From: an uncultured Clostridia bacterium
GTDB lineage: Bacteria > Bacillota > Clostridia > Christensenellales > UBA1242
Reading direction: 5' to 3'
Length of the DNA stretch: 43,214 nt
Assembly (NCBI GenBank): GCA_945937975.1
Contig: CAMEUD010000002.1
Location: 1-43,214 of the forward strand
Shown: positions 4,933-37,005 of the stretch, in pieces
Numbering within the stretch: the stretch's first letter is position 1
Layout of the letters: every line of letters starts with the position of its first letter
Position numbers and translations under genes: made by a program
Notes under the pieces: model-generated
What the model was told of the DNA's origin: nothing
Database searches by the model: none
What the model saw: the letters and a program-made list of their open reading frames with translations, nothing else

Positions 4933-6984
4933 CTAATATAACATATCATTGTAAGTTGGAATATCTAACAAATTTGATGGCAAAAGTTTTTCTATTTCAT
5001 CATACACACTTCTTACCTTTGACATTTGTGGTAAAAATTCTAGTTTTATAAATTCAATATCTTCACTAAATTTTTCAAAAGTCAAAGTAGATAATTTTAA
5101 TGCTTGCTTATATAATTCTTCATAAAGTTTTGTAATTGTCATTAATGTTTTTGTTCTTGCATTTGAATTTGACATAAGCACAGATAATGAATTTATATAA
5201 GTGTTAATTGCTGGGAAAATTTGTTTGTTTAACATTTCCAACATTGTTTTTGCTTCAAGTTTTATTGTATTTATATATTTTGATGTTAATGCCTGTTTTC
5301 TTAAACATAACTCATCTTTGTTTAATACATTAGTGTCTTTAAATAATTCAACAATGTCATCATCTAATAATTTATCATAAACACTTAAACCATCTTTATA
5401 TTCAATAAGTCCCCTTGAAAGTGCTTCATCTTTCCAATTTTTGTCATAACAGTTTCCATTGTTAATAACTTTACCATGCAATGTTATAAGATTTTTTAAT
5501 TCATCTATTAATATTTCTCTAACATTTTCTTTATCTTTTAATTTACCATACAAATCTTTAATCATTTTTGAAAGAGATGTTGAAATGCAAGTTAAAGGGA
5601 ATGCCAAAGACTGACTTGAACCAACCATTCTAAATTCGAATTTATTACCAACAAAAGCAAATGGACTAGTTCTATTTCTATCACAATAATCTTTTTGTGC
5701 TTGTGGCAAACTTTTTACTTTTGTATCCAAATATTTCTTTTTGTCAAAATGTTTTTTATCATCAAAAAACATATTTAATGAATTTAATACATAATCACTT
5801 GCAAACGCAGACACAATCGCAGGTGGGGCTTCATCTCCACCCAATCTTAAATCATTATCTCTATATGCAGTTGATAACCTTATTAACTTATTATATTTGT
5901 CTATGCTAGACACCATACAAACAAAGAATGTGTAAAATAATAATCTATCATCAAGTCCTAAATCAAACAAATTTATACCAGTATCTGTGCTAATTGATAA
6001 GTTAGCATGCTTACCACTTCCATTAATTCCATTAAAAGGTTTTTCGCTAAAAAGTGCAGTCATATTATATTTGTTTGCAGTTTCTTTAATTGTTTGAAGT
6101 ATTAAATAGTTTTGGTCGCAACTAATATTTGCCAAACTATAAATTGGGACAATTTCATATTGATTTGGTGCAACTTCGTTATGTTGCAATTTTGCACTTA
6201 TTCCCATTTTCCATAATGTGTTATTTACTTCATTCATAAATATGCTTATTTTATCTTCAATAACACCAAAATAATGAGAACACAACTCTTGTGATTTTAC
6301 AGGCTTTGCTCCAAGCAAAGTTCTTCCAACAATTTTTAAATCAAAACGCTTATTGAAATCATTTGAGTTAATCAAAAAGTATTCTTGTTCTGCTCCGACA
6401 CTCAAATTTACTTTTTTAACATTTTTGTAACCCAAAACATGAATTAATTTAACTGAATTTTCACTAAGGCTTTCAAGGGCTCTTAATAATGGTGTTTTTT
6501 CATCTAAACATGTTCCATTATATGAGCAAAATGCAGTTGGAATATATACAACTCTATTTTTTGCACTATCTTCTTTTATAAAAATTGGCGAAGTGTAATC
6601 CCAAACTGTATATCCCCTTGCTTCAAATGTCATTCGTTCTCCACCATTAGGAAAACTTGATGCATCTGTTTCACCTTTAATCAAATCTTTTGCCGAAAAC
6701 TTTTCTATAAACTTATTAGCTTTTGTTGGTTCAATAAAAGACACTTGTTTCCCTGCACTTTGATTCGTTAGTGGCATAAACCAATGAGTATAATGAGATG
6801 CTTTTTTATCTTTTGCCCATTTCATGATTGATTTTGCTATTTTTTGTGCAATATCATAAGTTAATGCTCCACCTTCATTTTTTATTTTTTTGTATGTATG
6901 AAATGAGAATATGTCGAGATATTTTTTCATAACTCTATCACTAAATACAAATTCTCCAAATAATTTTTCCGTTTTTGACTTCAT
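4933..6984 (-). CDS. glnN: Glutamine synthetase, type III
   Basis: 683 aa. GS motifs HNEVAPNQYEI and KPFNGINGSGKHANLS are present, and the length and long N-terminal extension are typical of GSIII. SD AAGGAG lies 7 nt upstream. Confidence 0.85.
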   Translation of the reverse strand: MKSKTEKLFGEFVFSDRVMKKYLDIFSFHTYKKIKNEGGALTYDIAQKIAKSIMKWAKDKKASHYTHWFMPLTNQSAGKQVSFIEPTKANKFIEKFSAKDLIKGETDASSFPNGGERMTFEARGYTVWDYTSPIFIKEDSAKNRVVYIPTAFCSYNGTCLDEKTPLLRALESLSENSVKLIHVLGYKNVKKVNLSVGAEQEYFLINSNDFNKRFDLKIVGRTLLGAKPVKSQELCSHYFGVIEDKISIFMNEVNNTLWKMGISAKLQHNEVAPNQYEIVPIYSLANISCDQNYLILQTIKETANKYNMTALFSEKPFNGINGSGKHANLSISTDTGINLFDLGLDDRLLFYTFFVCMVSSIDKYNKLIRLSTAYRDNDLRLGGDEAPPAIVSAFASDYVLNSLNMFFDDKKHFDKKKYLDTKVKSLPQAQKDYCDRNRTSPFAFVGNKFEFRMVGSSQSLAFPLTCISTSLSKMIKDLYGKLKDKENVREILIDELKNLITLHGKVINNGNCYDKNWKDEALSRGLIEYKDGLSVYDKLLDDDIVELFKDTNVLNKDELCLRKQALTSKYINTIKLEAKTMLEMLNKQIFPAINTYINSLSVLMSNSNARTKTLMTITKLYEELYKQALKLSTLTFEKFSEDIEFIKLEFLPQMSKVRSVYDEIEKLLPSNLLDIPTYNDMLY

Positions 6985-7000
6985 AAAATTCTCCTTTTAA

Positions 7001-7032
7001 ACAAAAAAACAACCAAATTTGCTTTGGTTGTT
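7001..7032 (-). terminator. Leader (attenuator) terminator directly upstream of glnN
   Basis: On the minus strand: AACAACCAAA-gcaaa-TTTGGTTGTT followed by TTTTTGTTT. It ends about 10 nt before the glnN SD, so it lies inside the 5' leader rather than after a gene. Confidence 0.6.
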
Positions 7033-7078
7033 CTTACTTTTTTAATTTTTTACACAACAAAACAATTGTAACAAATAT

Positions 7079-7123
7079 TTACAATAAAAGAATATTTTGT
7101 TGTTGTTGTTGAAATTTTTTCAT
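7079..7123 (-). CDS. Candidate Gln-rich leader peptide MKKFQQQQQNILLL
   Basis: ATG AAA AAA TTT CAA CAA CAA CAA CAA AAT ATT CTT TTA TTG TAA read from the minus strand. It sits between the promoter and the attenuator hairpin. There is no SD, and the ATG is 9 nt downstream of the -10, so it would be near-leaderless. Confidence 0.45.
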   Translation of the reverse strand: MKKFQQQQQNILLL

Positions 7124-7132
7124 ACAATATTT

Positions 7133-7161
7133 ATATTACTCGCCTTAAAAAAATTTGTCAA
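7133..7161 (-). promoter_or_regulatory. Sigma-A-like promoter of the glnN leader
   Basis: TTGACA (7161..7156), a 17-nt spacer, then TAATAT (7138..7133) on the minus strand. Confidence 0.55.
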
Positions 7162-7282
7162 TATATATTATGATAATTTTTTTATTTGTGTTAAATTTTT
7201 TAAAATACTAAATTTTAACAACTTTTAAAAACTAAATATTGAATAAAATCATTAAGTTTTGTTTTGTTTTTTAATTTTTCTT

Positions 7283-7291
7283 TGCTATAAT
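7283..7291 (+). promoter_or_regulatory. Extended -10 promoter (TGcTATAAT) of hpf
   Basis: TGCTATAAT lies 24 nt upstream of the hpf start, followed by SD AGGGAGG. Confidence 0.5.
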
Positions 7292-7314
7292 ACAGATATC
7301 AAAGGGAGGCAATT

Positions 7315-7845
7315 ATGAAAATAGAAATTATTGAAAGGAATTATGATGTAGGAGTTAGACTTCGTGCATTATTTGAAAAGAAAATAGAAAAACTTGATAG
7401 ATATTTTAATGATGATGCAATCGCAAAAGTTGTATGTGCAAAAGAAGGTAAAAGATTTAAACTTGAACTTACAATTATAAACAAAGGTAATATTTATAGA
7501 AGTGAAACATATGGCGAAAATATGTATGAAAATATTGATATAGTTTTGCCAAAAATTGAAAAGCAAATTATCAAATATTCAACAAAAAATCGTGATAAAC
7601 TTAAAAAAGGTGCATTTGATTTACCAAAATATGAATTTTTGGATAAAGAACCAAAAGAGAAAGAAAAAACTATCTACAAGAAAAAATCATTTAATCTTGA
7701 TCCACTCACAATCAATGATGCAGAAGAATTTTTGGAAAACTTGGAACATGATTTCTTTGTATTCCTTAATGCTGAAACAGGCAAAGTAAACATTTTATAC
7801 AACAGAAAAGATGGTGAACTTGGACTTATTGAATGTAATGTTTAA
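7315..7845 (+). CDS. hpf: Ribosome hibernation promoting factor, long form
   Basis: The S30AE/sigma-54 modulation fold starts at the N-terminus (MKIEIIERNYDVGVRLRALFEKKIEKLDRYF). A C-terminal dimerisation domain (FVFLNAETGKVNILYNRKDGELGLIE) is also present. Confidence 0.9.
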   Translation: MKIEIIERNYDVGVRLRALFEKKIEKLDRYFNDDAIAKVVCAKEGKRFKLELTIINKGNIYRSETYGENMYENIDIVLPKIEKQIIKYSTKNRDKLKKGAFDLPKYEFLDKEPKEKEKTIYKKKSFNLDPLTINDAEEFLENLEHDFFVFLNAETGKVNILYNRKDGELGLIECNV

Positions 7846-7871
7846 TTTATGTTTTAAATTTTAAAAATAGT

Positions 7872-7901
7872 AAATACTCTCTATAAAGGAGAGTATTTTT
7901 T
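7872..7901 (+). terminator. hpf terminator hairpin that contains the SD of the next gene
   Basis: AAATACTCTC-tataaag-GAGAGTATTT followed by T-run. The 3' arm includes GGAGAG, the only SD for the ATG at 7902. Confidence 0.6.
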
Positions 7902-15823: not shown

Positions 15824-15932
15824 ACTTGTTTTTATGATTTTGCAAAGACTTTTGACACTAGTATATAATTGACAAAAATATAAAAAAGTTATAAACTTAT
15901 GCTAGTTTTATTACCTAATTGGAGAGCAAAAA

Positions 15933-18260: not shown

Positions 18261-20021
18261 TTACTCCCTATTTTCTAATTTGAGTTTTGCAAATGAAATA
18301 AATTCTTCAATCTCCATTTCTTTTGATTCATTTGTTCCACGAACACGAACAGAAACAGTACCATTGTTTATTTCATTTTCACCCATTACTAGTATATATG
18401 GAATTTTTTGAGAAATTGCACTTCTTATTTTGTAACCAATCTTCTCATTTCTCTCATCAAGTTCAACTCTGAACCCTTGTTTTTTAAGTTCCATTTCAAC
18501 ATCTTTACATTTGTCGATAAATTTATCACTAATTGGCAAAATTTCCATTTGAACAGGTGCAAGCCAAAGTGGAAGAACACCTTTTGTTTCTTCAAGTAAG
18601 AATGCAACAAATCTATCAAGTGAACCAAGAATTGCTCTGTGAATAACAACAGGTCTTACTCTTTCATTGTTTTCATCAACATATTCAAGTTCAAATTTTT
18701 CTGGAAGTTGATAGTCAAGTTGAACAGTTGAAAGTGTTACATCATGTCCAAGAGCACTTCTAACTTGAACATCAATCTTTGGTCCATAGAATGCTGCTTC
18801 ACCTTTTGCTTCATAAAATTCAGCACCACTGTCTTGCAAAATTTTTCTTAAAGCATTTTCACTCTTTTCCCAAAGTTCATCATTACCAAAATATTTTTCA
18901 GCATTATTTTCATCACGAAGTGAAAGTCTAAAACTATATTTTTGGAAACCAAAATCTTTGTATACATCAAGAATTAGTTTTATAACATTATCAACTTCAC
19001 TTTCAATTTGGTCTGGTCTACAGAAAATATGTGAATCGTTTTGAGTAAATGCTCTGGCTCTTTCAATACCACAAAGAGAACCACTGCCTTCAAATCTAAA
19101 ATCATTTGCAATTTCTGCAATGCGAAGTGGCAAATCTTTGTATGAATGCATAAAGTTTTTATAAATCATCATATGATGTGGGCAGTTCATTGGACGAAGT
19201 ACATATTCTTCATCATCATCTTCCCTTTTCATTGATGGGAACATATCTTCATGATAATGGTCCCAATGTCCTGATGTTTTATATAAATCAACTGTTGCCA
19301 AACTTGGTGTCATAACATGCTTATATCCAAGTGCAATTTCTTTGTCCATAATATAATCACTTAATGCTCTACGAACAATAAATCCATTTGGAAGCCACAT
19401 TGGAAGTCCACGACCAACAAGGTCAGAGAACATAAATATTCCAAGGTCTTTGCCAAGTTTTCTGTGGTCTCTTTCTTGTGCTTCTTTAACAAGTGCCAAA
19501 TGTTCTTTAAGGTCTTGTTTGTCCAAGAAGCCATAAACATAAATTCTTTGCATCATTTTGTTTTTTTCGCTTCCACGCCAATATGCACCACTAACACGAT
19601 TTATTTTGAATGCAAAATTTCTTAACATTTTTGTGTTTTCAACATGAGGTCCTTTGCAAAGGTCAGTAAAGACATCACCAAGTTTGTAAATAGAAATTTC
19701 TTCATTTTCTGGCAAGTCATTGATAAGTTCAACCTTGTATGGTTGGTTTTTAAACATTTCTAATGCTTCTTGCTTTGAAATAACTTCTTTTGTCATATCA
19801 AGATTTTGATTGATTATTTCGTGCATTTTTGTTTCAATTTTTTCAAAATCTTCTGGAGTTAAACTTTCTTCCATATCAAAGTCATAATAGAACCCGTCTT
19901 CAATGGCAGGTCCAATACCAAACTTTACATCTTCTCCAAACAAACTTTTGATTGCACCAGCAAGTACATGGCTTGCCGTATGTCTTGCTTTATGTTGTAA
20001 TTCTTCTTTTTCTTTATCCAT
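18261..20021 (-). CDS. thrS: Threonine--tRNA ligase lacking the N-terminal TGS domain
   Basis: The editing-domain HxxxH (HTASHVLAGAI) already appears at residue 14. The class II core (RPMNCPHH, FRFEGSGSLCGIERARAFTQNDSHIF) and anticodon-binding domain are present. 586 aa. Confidence 0.95.
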   Translation of the reverse strand: MDKEKEELQHKARHTASHVLAGAIKSLFGEDVKFGIGPAIEDGFYYDFDMEESLTPEDFEKIETKMHEIINQNLDMTKEVISKQEALEMFKNQPYKVELINDLPENEEISIYKLGDVFTDLCKGPHVENTKMLRNFAFKINRVSGAYWRGSEKNKMMQRIYVYGFLDKQDLKEHLALVKEAQERDHRKLGKDLGIFMFSDLVGRGLPMWLPNGFIVRRALSDYIMDKEIALGYKHVMTPSLATVDLYKTSGHWDHYHEDMFPSMKREDDDEEYVLRPMNCPHHMMIYKNFMHSYKDLPLRIAEIANDFRFEGSGSLCGIERARAFTQNDSHIFCRPDQIESEVDNVIKLILDVYKDFGFQKYSFRLSLRDENNAEKYFGNDELWEKSENALRKILQDSGAEFYEAKGEAAFYGPKIDVQVRSALGHDVTLSTVQLDYQLPEKFELEYVDENNERVRPVVIHRAILGSLDRFVAFLLEETKGVLPLWLAPVQMEILPISDKFIDKCKDVEMELKKQGFRVELDERNEKIGYKIRSAISQKIPYILVMGENEINNGTVSVRVRGTNESKEMEIEEFISFAKLKLENRE

Positions 20022-20034
20022 TTTTCGCTCCTTT

Positions 20035-20230
20035 TAAATAAAAAAAGTCCATAAGAGATAAACTCTTAAGGACGATAATTTGTACCGTGTTTCCACCTTA
20101 ATTGCAAAATAAATTTGCCACTTAATTTCTAACTATGGTAGTTAGCAACCTTACCTTAAAAGTGGTTTCATACAAAAGTGTTTTTAAACAGCTTTCAGCC
20201 ACGACTGTTACTCTCTACAAAAACATTATT
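20035..20230 (-). promoter_or_regulatory. T-box riboswitch leader, Thr specifier (ACC)
   Basis: On the minus strand: AGAGAG at the stem I base, and specifier loop GAA-ACC-A (ACC at 20166..20164). The T-box sequence is AATTAAGGTGGAAACACGGTAC. The terminator GTCCTTAAGAG-tttat-CTCTTATGGAC plus T7 lies just before the thrS SD. Confidence 0.85.
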
Positions 20231-20274
20231 TTTGACTACTTGTCTTTTATTCGGTAAATTCAAATTACACTTGT

Positions 20275-29873: not shown

Positions 29874-29896
29874 TCTCTTTTGTCCTTTACTGACTT

Positions 29897-29925
29897 ATTA
29901 TAGCACCTATATATTTTATTTTCAA
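29897..29925 (-). promoter_or_regulatory. Strong extended -10 promoter of the three-paralog operon
   Basis: TTGAAA (29925..29920), a 17-nt spacer ending in TGc, then TATAAT (29902..29897). Confidence 0.55.
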
Positions 29926-29984
29926 TACCCAAAGATGTGTCAAATATAACTATTTTTTCGTAATATATCATACAAGGAGAAATT

Positions 29985-35937: not shown

Positions 35938-36303
35938 TTACTTAAGTTCTACAACTGCGCCAGCTTCTTTAAGTTTTGCTTCGATAGCTTTAGCTTCTTC
36001 TGCTGGAACATTTTCTTTAACATTTGCAGGAGCACCATCAACAAGTGCTTTTGCTTCGCCAAGACCAAGTCCTGTGATTTCTCTAACTGCTTTGATTGCA
36101 GCGATTTTGTTTGCGCCAGCTTCTTTAAGAACAACTGTAAATTCAGTTTTTTCTTCAGCTGCTGCTGCAGGAGCTGCACCACCAGCTACTACTGCTGCTG
36201 CGGCACTAACACCAAATTCTTCTTCTAATTTTTTAACAAGGTCGTTTAATTCTACGACTGTCATTCCTTTAACTTCTTCAACAAATTTATTAAGATCTGC
36301 CAT
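35938..36303 (-). CDS. rplL: 50S ribosomal protein L7/L12
   Basis: Ala-rich hinge [22 protein letters not shown] and C-terminal domain [27 protein letters not shown]. Confidence 0.97.
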
Positions 36304-36341: not shown

Positions 36342-36827
36342 TTATTGTTTGTCTGCAATAGCTTTAAGACATACTGCCAAGCCACGCATAGGTGATGAAA
36401 GCATACCAACAAGTTGAGCAAGTAATACTTCTCTTGATGGGATACTTGCAAGTTTTTTAACTTCATTTGCATCAATAACTGCACCGTTGTAAATACCAAA
36501 CTTGATTGGGAATTCGCAGTTTTCTGCTTTTGCACCAACAACAAGTTTTGCAGGAGCAACTTCATCTTCATATCCGAAAGCGATTGCGTTTGTTCCTTCC
36601 AAATAACTATCACAACCTGTGAATCCAAGTTCATTTAATGCACGAAGAATAAGTCTGTTTTTGTAAACTCTGTATTCTGCGCTATTTTTTCTGAATTCAG
36701 CACGAAGTTTTGTGTCTTGTTCAACTGTAATTCCACGATAGTCAGCAACAACAACTGTTTTTGCTTTTTGAAGTTTTTCTTTTATTTCTTCGACTAATGC
36801 TTGTTTTGCATCTAAATTTGCACTCAT
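36342..36827 (-). CDS. rplJ: 50S ribosomal protein L10
   Basis: The pattern AKQALVEEIKEKLQKAKTVVVADYRGITVEQDTKLR is typical of L10. It lies immediately upstream of rplL. Confidence 0.95.
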   Translation of the reverse strand: MSANLDAKQALVEEIKEKLQKAKTVVVADYRGITVEQDTKLRAEFRKNSAEYRVYKNRLILRALNELGFTGCDSYLEGTNAIAFGYEDEVAPAKLVVGAKAENCEFPIKFGIYNGAVIDANEVKKLASIPSREVLLAQLVGMLSSPMRGLAVCLKAIADKQ

Positions 36828-37005
36828 TATTTTGCCTCCTTTATAGATTTGTATGTTAAAAATTAAAAAAACCTTTCGTGCCGATTAAAAGCAGAAAGGT
36901 TAATATTTTAGCCATTCAAATCTTTACCTCGGCAAGCACATAAATGTTTACGATAATGATATCACTTGCTGTCTATGGACAAAGGATTTATTTAATTTTC
37001 GTGTG
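36828..37005 (-). promoter_or_regulatory. rplJ (L10) leader with attenuator hairpin
   Basis: A 5' UTR of about 175 nt lies between a consensus promoter and rplJ. It contains AACCTTTC...GAAAGGTT plus T7 (36901..36865). This is consistent with the Firmicute L10-leader autoregulatory attenuator. Confidence 0.65.

Follow-up and report, generated by a model that had tools for sequence, protein, structure and literature searches.

A candidate glutamine-specific leader-peptide attenuator upstream of the type III glutamine synthetase gene in uncultured Clostridia

The expression of glnN, the type III glutamine synthetase (GSIII) gene of an uncultured Clostridia bacterium, is quite probably governed by a ribosome-mediated (leader-peptide) transcription attenuator that responds to glutamine. 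The element lies immediately upstream of the gene on contig CAMEUD010000002.1 of assembly GCA_945937975.1, of which positions 1 to 43,214 were analysed (henceforth 'the window'). It comprises a promoter, a short open reading frame (ORF) with a run of glutamine codons, alternative RNA helices and an intrinsic terminator, all on the minus strand; the signal sensed would be the supply of Gln-tRNA(Gln). This interpretation was put forward in an earlier note on the same DNA, and its sequence-level predictions have turned out favourably: the layout is kept among relatives, the terminator helix (3:4) covaries, the antiterminator helix (2:3) is retained, and the segment shared by the competing structures (segment 2) is left unmasked when a ribosome is placed on the glutamine codons. 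The glnN leader is best read, from its sequence, as a new, glutamine-specific leader-peptide attenuator.

Organisation and predicted folding of the glnN leader

A sigma-70-type promoter, TTGACA-17-TAATAT, is found at 7133..7161 (-35 hexamer at 7161..7156, -10 hexamer at 7138..7133, spacer of 17 nt), just where the earlier note had placed it. The leader ATG follows 9 nt past the end of the -10 hexamer. As had also been claimed, the ORF at 7079..7123 (ATG at 7123, TAA at 7081..7079) has 15 codons, i.e. 14 and a stop: ATG AAA AAA TTT, then CAA five times, then AAT ATT CTT TTA TTG TAA, encoding MKKFQQQQQNILLL. The five consecutive CAA (Gln) codons at 7097..7111 are the putative control codons. An intrinsic terminator at 6999..7035, consisting of a 13 bp helix (3:4; hairpin 7035..7005) and a U-run (T-run 7009..6999), is situated within the 5' leader of glnN, for which the Shine-Dalgarno (SD) sequence GGAG is at 6994..6991 and the ATG at 6984 (4933..6994 overall). 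The hairpin and U-run were correctly described in the earlier note, except that the U-run ends approximately 4-7 nt before the SD rather than about 10 nt. The ORF at 6984..4933 encodes 683 amino acids with matches to the Pfam domains GSIII_N (6.5e-61), Gln-synt_C and Gln-synt_C-ter, which supports its identification as the type III glutamine synthetase, the regulated gene of the proposed attenuator.

This layout is beyond what would be expected by chance. The sequence CAACAACAACAA occurs once in the 43-kb window, at the leader, against an expectation of 0.08, and a scan of 6500..7900 found three terminator-like sites where 0.3 were expected. The fold of the 146-nt leader has a predicted free energy of -29.8 kcal/mol (z = -3.3), and none of 200 shuffled sequences was as stable. 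The promoter match, taken alone, is not significant (9 found against 9.5 expected), and is meaningful only because its position is conserved in relatives. Across leaders, the distance from the terminator to the glnN ATG is 17-47 nt, SD included, and it is ~20 nt in the window. As this leaves no room for a separate promoter, every glnN transcript must read through the terminator.

In the minimum free energy (MFE) fold, the CAA run is paired with the UUGUUUUGUUGU / UUGUUUUGUUG stretch, with an apical hairpin on top and the terminator 3' of both. Segment 1 (7093..7106), made up of part of the Gln run and the following AAAAU, is the anti-antiterminator strand of the resulting helix 1:2, and its pairing with segment 2 had been anticipated in the earlier note. 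Segment 2 (UGUUUUGUUGUGU, 7052..7064), delimited from constrained folds, alignment and energies, can partner either segment 1 or segment 3. The apical hairpin AUUGUAA/UUACAAU (7065..7085) encloses the leader stop codon, and its sequence is at the same time a TGTAA-N7-TTACA palindrome. The terminator is separated from segment 2 by an A-rich spacer (7036..7051) that is unconserved in sequence and 8-35 nt long in relatives. Segment 3 (ACAA-c-CAAAGCA, 7020..7031), which is the target of helix 2:3, comprises the terminator 5' arm and loop.

The antiterminator was folded with the transcript cut before the terminator 3' arm and a ribosome-sized mask over the Gln codons. Under these conditions, 7064..7054 of the window pairs with 7031..7020 to form 11 bp with one bulged C, occupying three bases of the loop and the upper half of the 5' arm of the terminator, and most of the leaders from other genomes form a helix between segments 2 and 3. 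Masking the Gln codons thus frees segment 2 for segment 3 when the terminator 3' arm is left out, as the earlier note had foreseen; the pairing with the terminator 5' arm stands, while the register proposed for it (8 of 9 bases) gives way to this longer, bulged helix that reaches into the loop. The predicted energies are -12.8 kcal/mol for helix 1:2 with the apical hairpin, -7.4 kcal/mol for helix 2:3 and -13.8 kcal/mol for helix 3:4. In the predicted folds, the 1:2, 2:3 and 3:4 pairings exclude one another, and the control codons fall within segment 1.

Because A-runs flank the hairpin, the leader terminator is scored as terminator-like on the plus strand too (7008-7032). It could be bidirectional, acting for instance against antisense transcripts crossing glnN.

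Distribution among GSIII loci

For comparison, 33 GSIII proteins were aligned and 80 GSIII loci were retrieved, with one genome per species. In the three closest genomes, from uncultured Clostridia and 'Christensenella sp. UBA5893' (glutamine synthetase, GS, 89-98% identical), the leader is almost unchanged at the base level and has 4 or 5 CAA codons. The same layout is present in nearly every locus at which the GS is ~45-69% identical (L006-L022, L026, L027, L030 and L031). The layout-bearing loci have a GC content of 26-38% and come from gut and rumen metagenome-assembled genomes labelled Clostridia, Christensenella, Candidatus Caccovivens and Lachnospiraceae. All leader-bearing relatives have 3-5 Gln codons (CAA, occasionally CAG), specifying the amino acid that is the product of the regulated enzyme. 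Hence the expectation that relatives would keep a short ORF with an in-frame Gln run and a terminator before glnN is borne out down to a GSIII identity of 45%. The position of the promoter is also retained in relatives, and the intergenic DNA upstream of the -35 hexamer has diverged.

The number of CAA codons is 5, 4, 5 and 4 among the genomes with GS 89-98% identical (window 7097-7111; L001 1375-1386; L003 1381-1392). This suggests repeat slippage, which could tune the sensitivity of an attenuator.

No locus with a GS of 44% identity or less carries the leader, and it is also absent from seven loci in the 45-50% band (L024, L025, L028, L029, L032, L033 and L036). The higher-GC or distant GSIII loci L035-L083 and L208-L282 are without a Gln-run leader; the occurrence of CAGCAACAA in L072 and L080 was rejected as a chance match, the architecture being absent. 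Among additional, more distant GSIII loci, L325, L327 and L207 have the leader and L326 and L328 do not. A metagenome scan for GSIII relatives added just five close loci.

A covariance model built from 21 leaders was run on 91 sources. It returned 27 matches at E < 1e-5, all of them immediately 5' of GSIII and three of them outside the training set. A separate search used a three-part exact pattern (Gln run, segment 2 and segment 3) over 185,579 species genomes; as the pattern describes the main subgroup only, it gives a lower bound on the number of members. There were 45 matches, and all 18 with both the ORF and the terminator are directly 5' of GSIII. Of the other 27, 26 are without a short ORF and none has a credible terminator, such that the 45 matches give no sign of any other target gene. 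This pattern superseded an earlier one, CAACAACAAAA-N20-45-TTTTGTTGT, for which the matches listed were mostly palindromic chance matches. The family thus delimited comprises at least about 25 species-level lineages and is confined to GSIII genes of low-GC uncultured Clostridia.

At one further locus (L034, 1056-1170; GS 45% identical), the terminator and a segment-2-like CAAUUUUUGUGG are kept and the ATG and Gln run are gone. This decayed copy scores 28.7 bits (E 0.08) with the covariance model, and it looks like an attenuator that has lost its sensor.

The leader ORF

Several features of the leader ORF suggest that it is a genuine coding frame. The frame of the Gln run contains, in each of 24 leader-carrying sequences tested, an ATG 4-7 codons 5' and a stop codon 5-8 codons 3' of the run. 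An ATG in either of the other two frames is found in 2 of 48 cases, and shuffling of the flanks yields such an ORF in ~6% of instances (about 0.06 per sequence). The ORF test was positive for 18 of 19 non-redundant leaders; the exception, L014, is an artefact of the way in which segment 2 was delimited, and its ORF is present. Outside the Gln run the leader peptides differ (MKNIQQQQNSALL, MIKHLQQQQNNFLLL, MIIFRAQQQQNFGEIV, MFTLIQQQQVNINFIL, MFYTLNQQQQNKFYLIVQ, MKKIVFLQQQQQIYAYINI and MIKKFSQQQQQILSVYLI). As these flanking codons vary between species, the reading frame has been kept through sequence turnover. One Gln codon has undergone a synonymous change to CAG in L031 and in L207.

In most leader peptides, an Asn codon (AAU or AAC) directly follows the Gln run (QQQQN; 7094-7096 in the window). 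Its role may be no more than to provide the AAAAU for pairing with segment 2. On the other hand, it could contribute to the sensing of amide nitrogen, if the synthesis of Asn or Asn-tRNA needs glutamine.

The geometry of initiation falls into distinct classes. Nine leaders (L007, L008, L018, L021, L026, L027, L030, L031 and L327) have the ATG 6 nt past the -10 hexamer and no SD, and in these the A of the ATG would itself be the first transcribed base. The window, L006, L009, L010 and L207 have a distance of 8-9 nt and likewise no SD. The remaining class (L011, L014, L015, L016, L017, L019, L022 and L325) has a 5' untranslated region (UTR) of 20-39 nt, and a motif scan detected an SD-like run (AAGG, GGAG, GAGT or GAGA) 4-14 nt before the ATG in all eight of these except L011. 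The existence of two solutions to initiation at the same ORF would be hard to explain unless the leader ORF is translated. It also answers a caveat raised in the earlier note, namely that the window ORF has no SD and begins only 9 nt past the -10 hexamer: relatives divide between leaderless geometry and a 5' UTR, in most of the latter cases with an SD-like run.

Conservation of the competing helices

The terminator is present in 22 of 22 leaders analysed, with energies of -9 to -20 kcal/mol. In the model-based alignment, compensatory changes are observed at 13 of 13 terminator pairs and 90% of cells are paired. Helix 1:2 is 84% paired across 24 leaders and its core is invariant, as expected given that one strand must stay CAA codons. 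When a MAFFT alignment was analysed with RNAalifold, only the helix 1:2 core and the terminator were recovered. The apical hairpin was poorly aligned, and was just ~60% paired in the model-based alignment, hence it was judged sequence by sequence. On this basis it is predicted in nearly all of 25 leaders, with differing stems (AUUGUAA/UUACAAU, UAUAU/AUAUA, GGGUGU/ACACUU) and loops of 3-7 nt, and in most of the 25 the stop codon is either within the hairpin or immediately precedes it.

The potential for helix 2:3 is conserved as well. In the MAFFT alignment, 85.7% of cells are standard pairs, compared to 40-58% with the partner displaced by 1-3 columns, and neither the pairing nor the covariation score was reached by any of 500 shuffles. 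The duplex between segments 2 and 3 has a mean energy of approximately -6.5 to -6.9 kcal/mol, against -2.6 to -2.8 kcal/mol for 28-39 unrelated terminators of the same genomes. In the subgroup formed by L026, L027, L030 and L031, helix 2:3 is formed with a different segment 2 (CAAUUUUUUGUUGG) and a different segment 3 (ACCAUUGGAAAUUG). In the terminator 5' arm, CAAC[CU]AAA or a different A-rich complement of segment 2 is retained across species of which the spacers have no sequence in common; such conservation of an arm would not be expected of an ordinary terminator. The covariation asked for in the earlier note is seen at every pair of helix 3:4, and helix 2:3 is kept, with an excess of pairing in the proper register.

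A model of attenuation and the evidence against it

From these arrangements we infer the following sequence of events. Transcription would start at or 1-3 nt from the leader AUG, and a ribosome would translate the 14-codon ORF close behind the RNA polymerase. When glutamine is scarce, the ribosome would stall on the five CAA codons, covering segment 1. With the second to the fifth CAA in its A site it would cover the whole of segment 1, and with the first CAA in the A site the AAAAU tail alone would be exposed. Segment 2, left free, would pair with the upper part of the terminator 5' arm and with the loop immediately upon their transcription; helix 2:3 would then block nucleation of the terminator hairpin and the polymerase would read through into glnN. 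When glutamine is plentiful, the ribosome would reach the stop codon inside the apical hairpin and leave. In that case, or if the ORF were not translated at all, segment 1 would re-pair with segment 2 (-12.8 versus -7.4 kcal/mol), the terminator would form and transcription would stop ~20 nt before glnN. Helix 1:2 should outcompete helix 2:3 whenever segment 1 is free, such that the latter could win only by forming first, with segment 1 held in the ribosome. The physiological fit is good, as the product of the enzyme is the amino acid specified by the repeated codons.

A number of observations weigh against this model. The distance of 9 nt between the -10 hexamer and the ATG in the window gives an mRNA leader of 1-3 nt, which is not strictly leaderless. 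In a full-length fold with the Gln codons masked, the terminator remains the MFE structure and there is no switch to the antiterminator; helix 2:3 amounts to just -7.4 kcal/mol and is rich in AU and GU pairs. The 1:2/2:3/3:4 layout of an attenuator described in the earlier note was recovered, yet the balance between terminator and antiterminator is weaker than it implied. As the terminator (-13.8 kcal/mol) always beats the antiterminator (-7.4 kcal/mol) at equilibrium, the switch must be kinetic. A modest helix may suffice for this, because it sits on the nucleation site of the terminator hairpin, formed by the loop and the part of the 5' arm nearest to it.

The position of the stop codon presents a further difficulty. 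In the window, 19 nt separate it from the U-run of segment 2 and 17 nt from the first paired base, and a terminating ribosome would reach ~12-13 nt downstream, leaving segment 2 unmasked. It is in the replete state that the proposed mechanism, in the window, departs from the textbook scheme. Termination in the replete state must there rely on ribosome release and re-formation of helix 1:2, which would have to take place while the polymerase crosses the 16-nt A-rich spacer. In L015, L016, L019, L026, L027, L030 and L031, the corresponding distance is 7-13 nt, and in these seven relatives classical masking would work.

The comparative evidence also has its limits. Covariation in helices 1:2 and 2:3 is mostly one-sided (G-C to G-U and, in helix 2:3, U-A to U-G), since the CAA codons constrain segment 2. 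The aligned sequences are phylogenetically related, and the structure of helix 2:3 was derived from one of them. Finally, coupling of transcription and translation is thought to be poor in Bacillota, on the example of B. subtilis, which makes such attenuation less common there.

Alternative explanations

The best surviving alternative, itself improbable, is that the leader is an attenuator with a sensor other than the ribosome. A protein or ligand recognising either the 1:2 hairpin or the (CAA)n/(AAC)n repeat would free segment 2, and the ORF would be incidental; the part could be played by an Hfq-like protein with affinity for A-R-N repeats, by an RNA-binding protein under nitrogen control or by a small riboswitch. 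Many Bacillota attenuators do work through proteins or ligands. The core of helix 1:2 is invariant at the nucleotide level, as a binding site would be, and (AAC)n fits the A-R-N repeats that are bound by the distal face of Hfq. However, such a sensor leaves unexplained why the ATG is always in the CAA frame, with that frame open through variable flanking codons, why leaderless and SD-led geometries alternate, and why the stop codon is in or beside the apical hairpin in nearly all leaders. Nor was any Rfam family, the glutamine riboswitches included, detected in the leader at E values up to 10.

Less probable again are readings without any sensing of glutamine: the short ORF and its terminator would be a small gene or small RNA in their own right, or the terminator would stop a fraction of transcripts constitutively and simply hold glnN at a low basal level. 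Upstream small ORFs are common in AT-rich DNA, and the terminator is thermodynamically dominant in every fold. Against this, conservation of the peptide is limited to the Gln run, the stretch past the terminator is too short for a glnN promoter, and the complementarity of segments 2 and 3, along with the conserved terminator 5' arm, would be without purpose. Furthermore, the Gln-codon run is in every case tied to the enzyme that makes glutamine.

The least credible proposal treats the palindrome TGTAA-N7-TTACA (7067..7083) as an operator of the GlnR/TnrA type, at which a MerR-family nitrogen repressor would act as a roadblock on DNA and the ORF and terminator would be secondary: this is a perfect match to TGTNA-N7-TNACA before a glutamine synthetase gene, and low-GC Gram-positive bacteria usually regulate GS through GlnR/TnrA, yet the pattern occurs four times in the window against 2.8 expected (33 of 100 shuffles equal it), it lies ~40-57 nt downstream of the start rather than over the promoter, a glnR gene was not found in the 43-kb window (which is just partly informative), and the N7 spacing is found in only 6 of 25 leaders, the others having N5, N6 or wholly different stems (UAUAU/AUAUA, GGGUGU/ACACUU). 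As both spacing and stem sequence vary, the apical palindrome behaves as an RNA hairpin rather than a fixed-spacing operator, and an operator was rejected as an explanation for the family as a whole. The palindrome in the window is probably an RNA stem, and a dual role as stem and operator in the source species is conceivable.

Relationship to known regulatory systems

At the gathering score, an Rfam scan of the window placed no riboswitch, T-box or leader family at the glnN leader. A permissive search (E up to 10) of 6900..7320 found no leader family, no glutamine riboswitch (glnA RNA, Glutamine-II) and no T-box; in the same mode, the T-box upstream of thrS elsewhere in the window was detected at 78 bits, serving as a positive control. 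As it matches none of the Rfam Trp, His, Leu or Thr leaders, the glnN leader would represent a separate, undescribed family. No description of a Gln-codon leader peptide, or of attenuation at glnN or glnA, was found in the full-text literature, of which the journal coverage was incomplete; within that scope, the statement of the earlier note that no such leader peptide had been described for a glutamine synthetase holds.

Of known systems, the Proteobacterial attenuators (trpL, hisL, leuL, thrL, pheL and ilvL) offer the closest parallel in architecture, with a short ORF bearing a run of codons for the end product, four segments pairing as 1:2, 2:3 and 3:4 with the control codons in segment 1, and a terminator just before the structural gene. 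No sequence relationship is apparent from Rfam matches. The glnN leader would further differ in sensing glutamine and in targeting a single enzyme, GSIII, rather than a multi-step biosynthetic operon; in the leaderless or near-leaderless initiation that the promoter spacing suggests for most members; in an antiterminator aimed at the upper arm and loop of the terminator; in a stop codon that, in the window, is too far from segment 2 for masking by a terminating ribosome; and in its host, a lineage of Clostridia.

Outside the Proteobacteria, polycysteine leaderless short ORFs act as cysteine-responsive attenuators in mycobacteria (bioRxiv 10.1101/834739). With the glnN leader, putatively leaderless or near-leaderless as well, they would share a short ORF as first cistron in which repeated codons for a single amino acid link the progress of the ribosome to the expression of downstream genes for the metabolism of that amino acid; they differ in host (Actinobacteria) and amino acid (Cys), and the glnN leader has a canonical intrinsic terminator with 1:2/2:3/3:4 alternatives. 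Computationally defined leaders with codon runs beside terminators, as here, include a His leader that in bacilli precedes hisS paralogues and hisZ (PMC2965389), and the candidate upstream ORFs uORFC-13-1 (Phe, 5' of aroF in Acholeplasma) and uORFC-8-2 (Cys, 5' of cysS in Rhodobacterales) (PMC8632094). These imply that ribosome-mediated attenuation exists outside Proteobacteria and Actinobacteria, but they concern other amino acids and genes, none of them glutamine or a glutamine synthetase.

GlnR/TnrA operators, glutamine riboswitches and T-boxes serve the same GS and nitrogen functions, and the latter two are also located in 5' leaders. The glnN leader matches no riboswitch or T-box model, and it differs from GlnR/TnrA sites in that its palindrome spacing is unconserved.

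Other features of the window

The gene divergent from glnN, 5' of the leader (7315..7845, plus strand), encodes a ribosome hibernation factor. The T-box leader of thrS lies at 20065-20255 on the minus strand, upstream of the gene at 18261..20021 on the same strand. It scores 78 bits (E 2.3e-17), and was missed by the default scan because this is below the Rfam gathering score of 93. Its presence implies that in this organism at least one aminoacyl-tRNA synthetase gene is under T-box control, in addition to the putative leader-peptide device of glnN.

An Rfam ribosomal protein L10 leader (36857-36996, minus strand, 64.8 bits) precedes two ORFs on the same strand, 36342-36827 and 35938-36303, which are presumably rplJ and rplL; this match is an ordinary feature. 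The regions 5' of hisS (15824-15932) and glmS (29874-29984), both on the plus strand, are short, at ~110 nt, and contain no T-box or glmS ribozyme at the Rfam gathering score. This lack is unusual for Bacillota.

Implications

Glutamine synthetase is the point at which nitrogen enters biomass, and the controls known to act upon it comprise GlnR/TnrA, NtrC, NtcA, PII, adenylylation, small RNAs and glutamine riboswitches. It is likely that the glnN leaders constitute the first recognised family of glutamine-specific leader-peptide attenuators. Stalling at CAA codons on a leaderless or near-leaderless mRNA would then switch GSIII in a clade of low-GC, uncultured gut Clostridia, with Gln-tRNA(Gln) as the quantity read in place of free glutamine, 2-oxoglutarate or PII status. 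If so, this would represent a new logic of GS control, in which charged tRNA(Gln) is sensed via the speed of translation, and it would fill a gap in the list of amino acids read by attenuators. Were Gln-tRNA(Gln) made by GatCAB transamidation in these organisms, the signal would integrate the supply of amide nitrogen directly.

In Clostridia, T-boxes and riboswitches dominate and the coupling of transcription and translation is considered weak; the proposed mechanism would mean that ribosome-mediated attenuation, partly on leaderless mRNAs, is at work in this class. Conserved, sharply delimited and only about 125 nt long, the element provides a handle on uncultured gut bacteria that is testable with reporters. 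The glnN leader could also serve as a marker of nitrogen limitation in gut metatranscriptomes.

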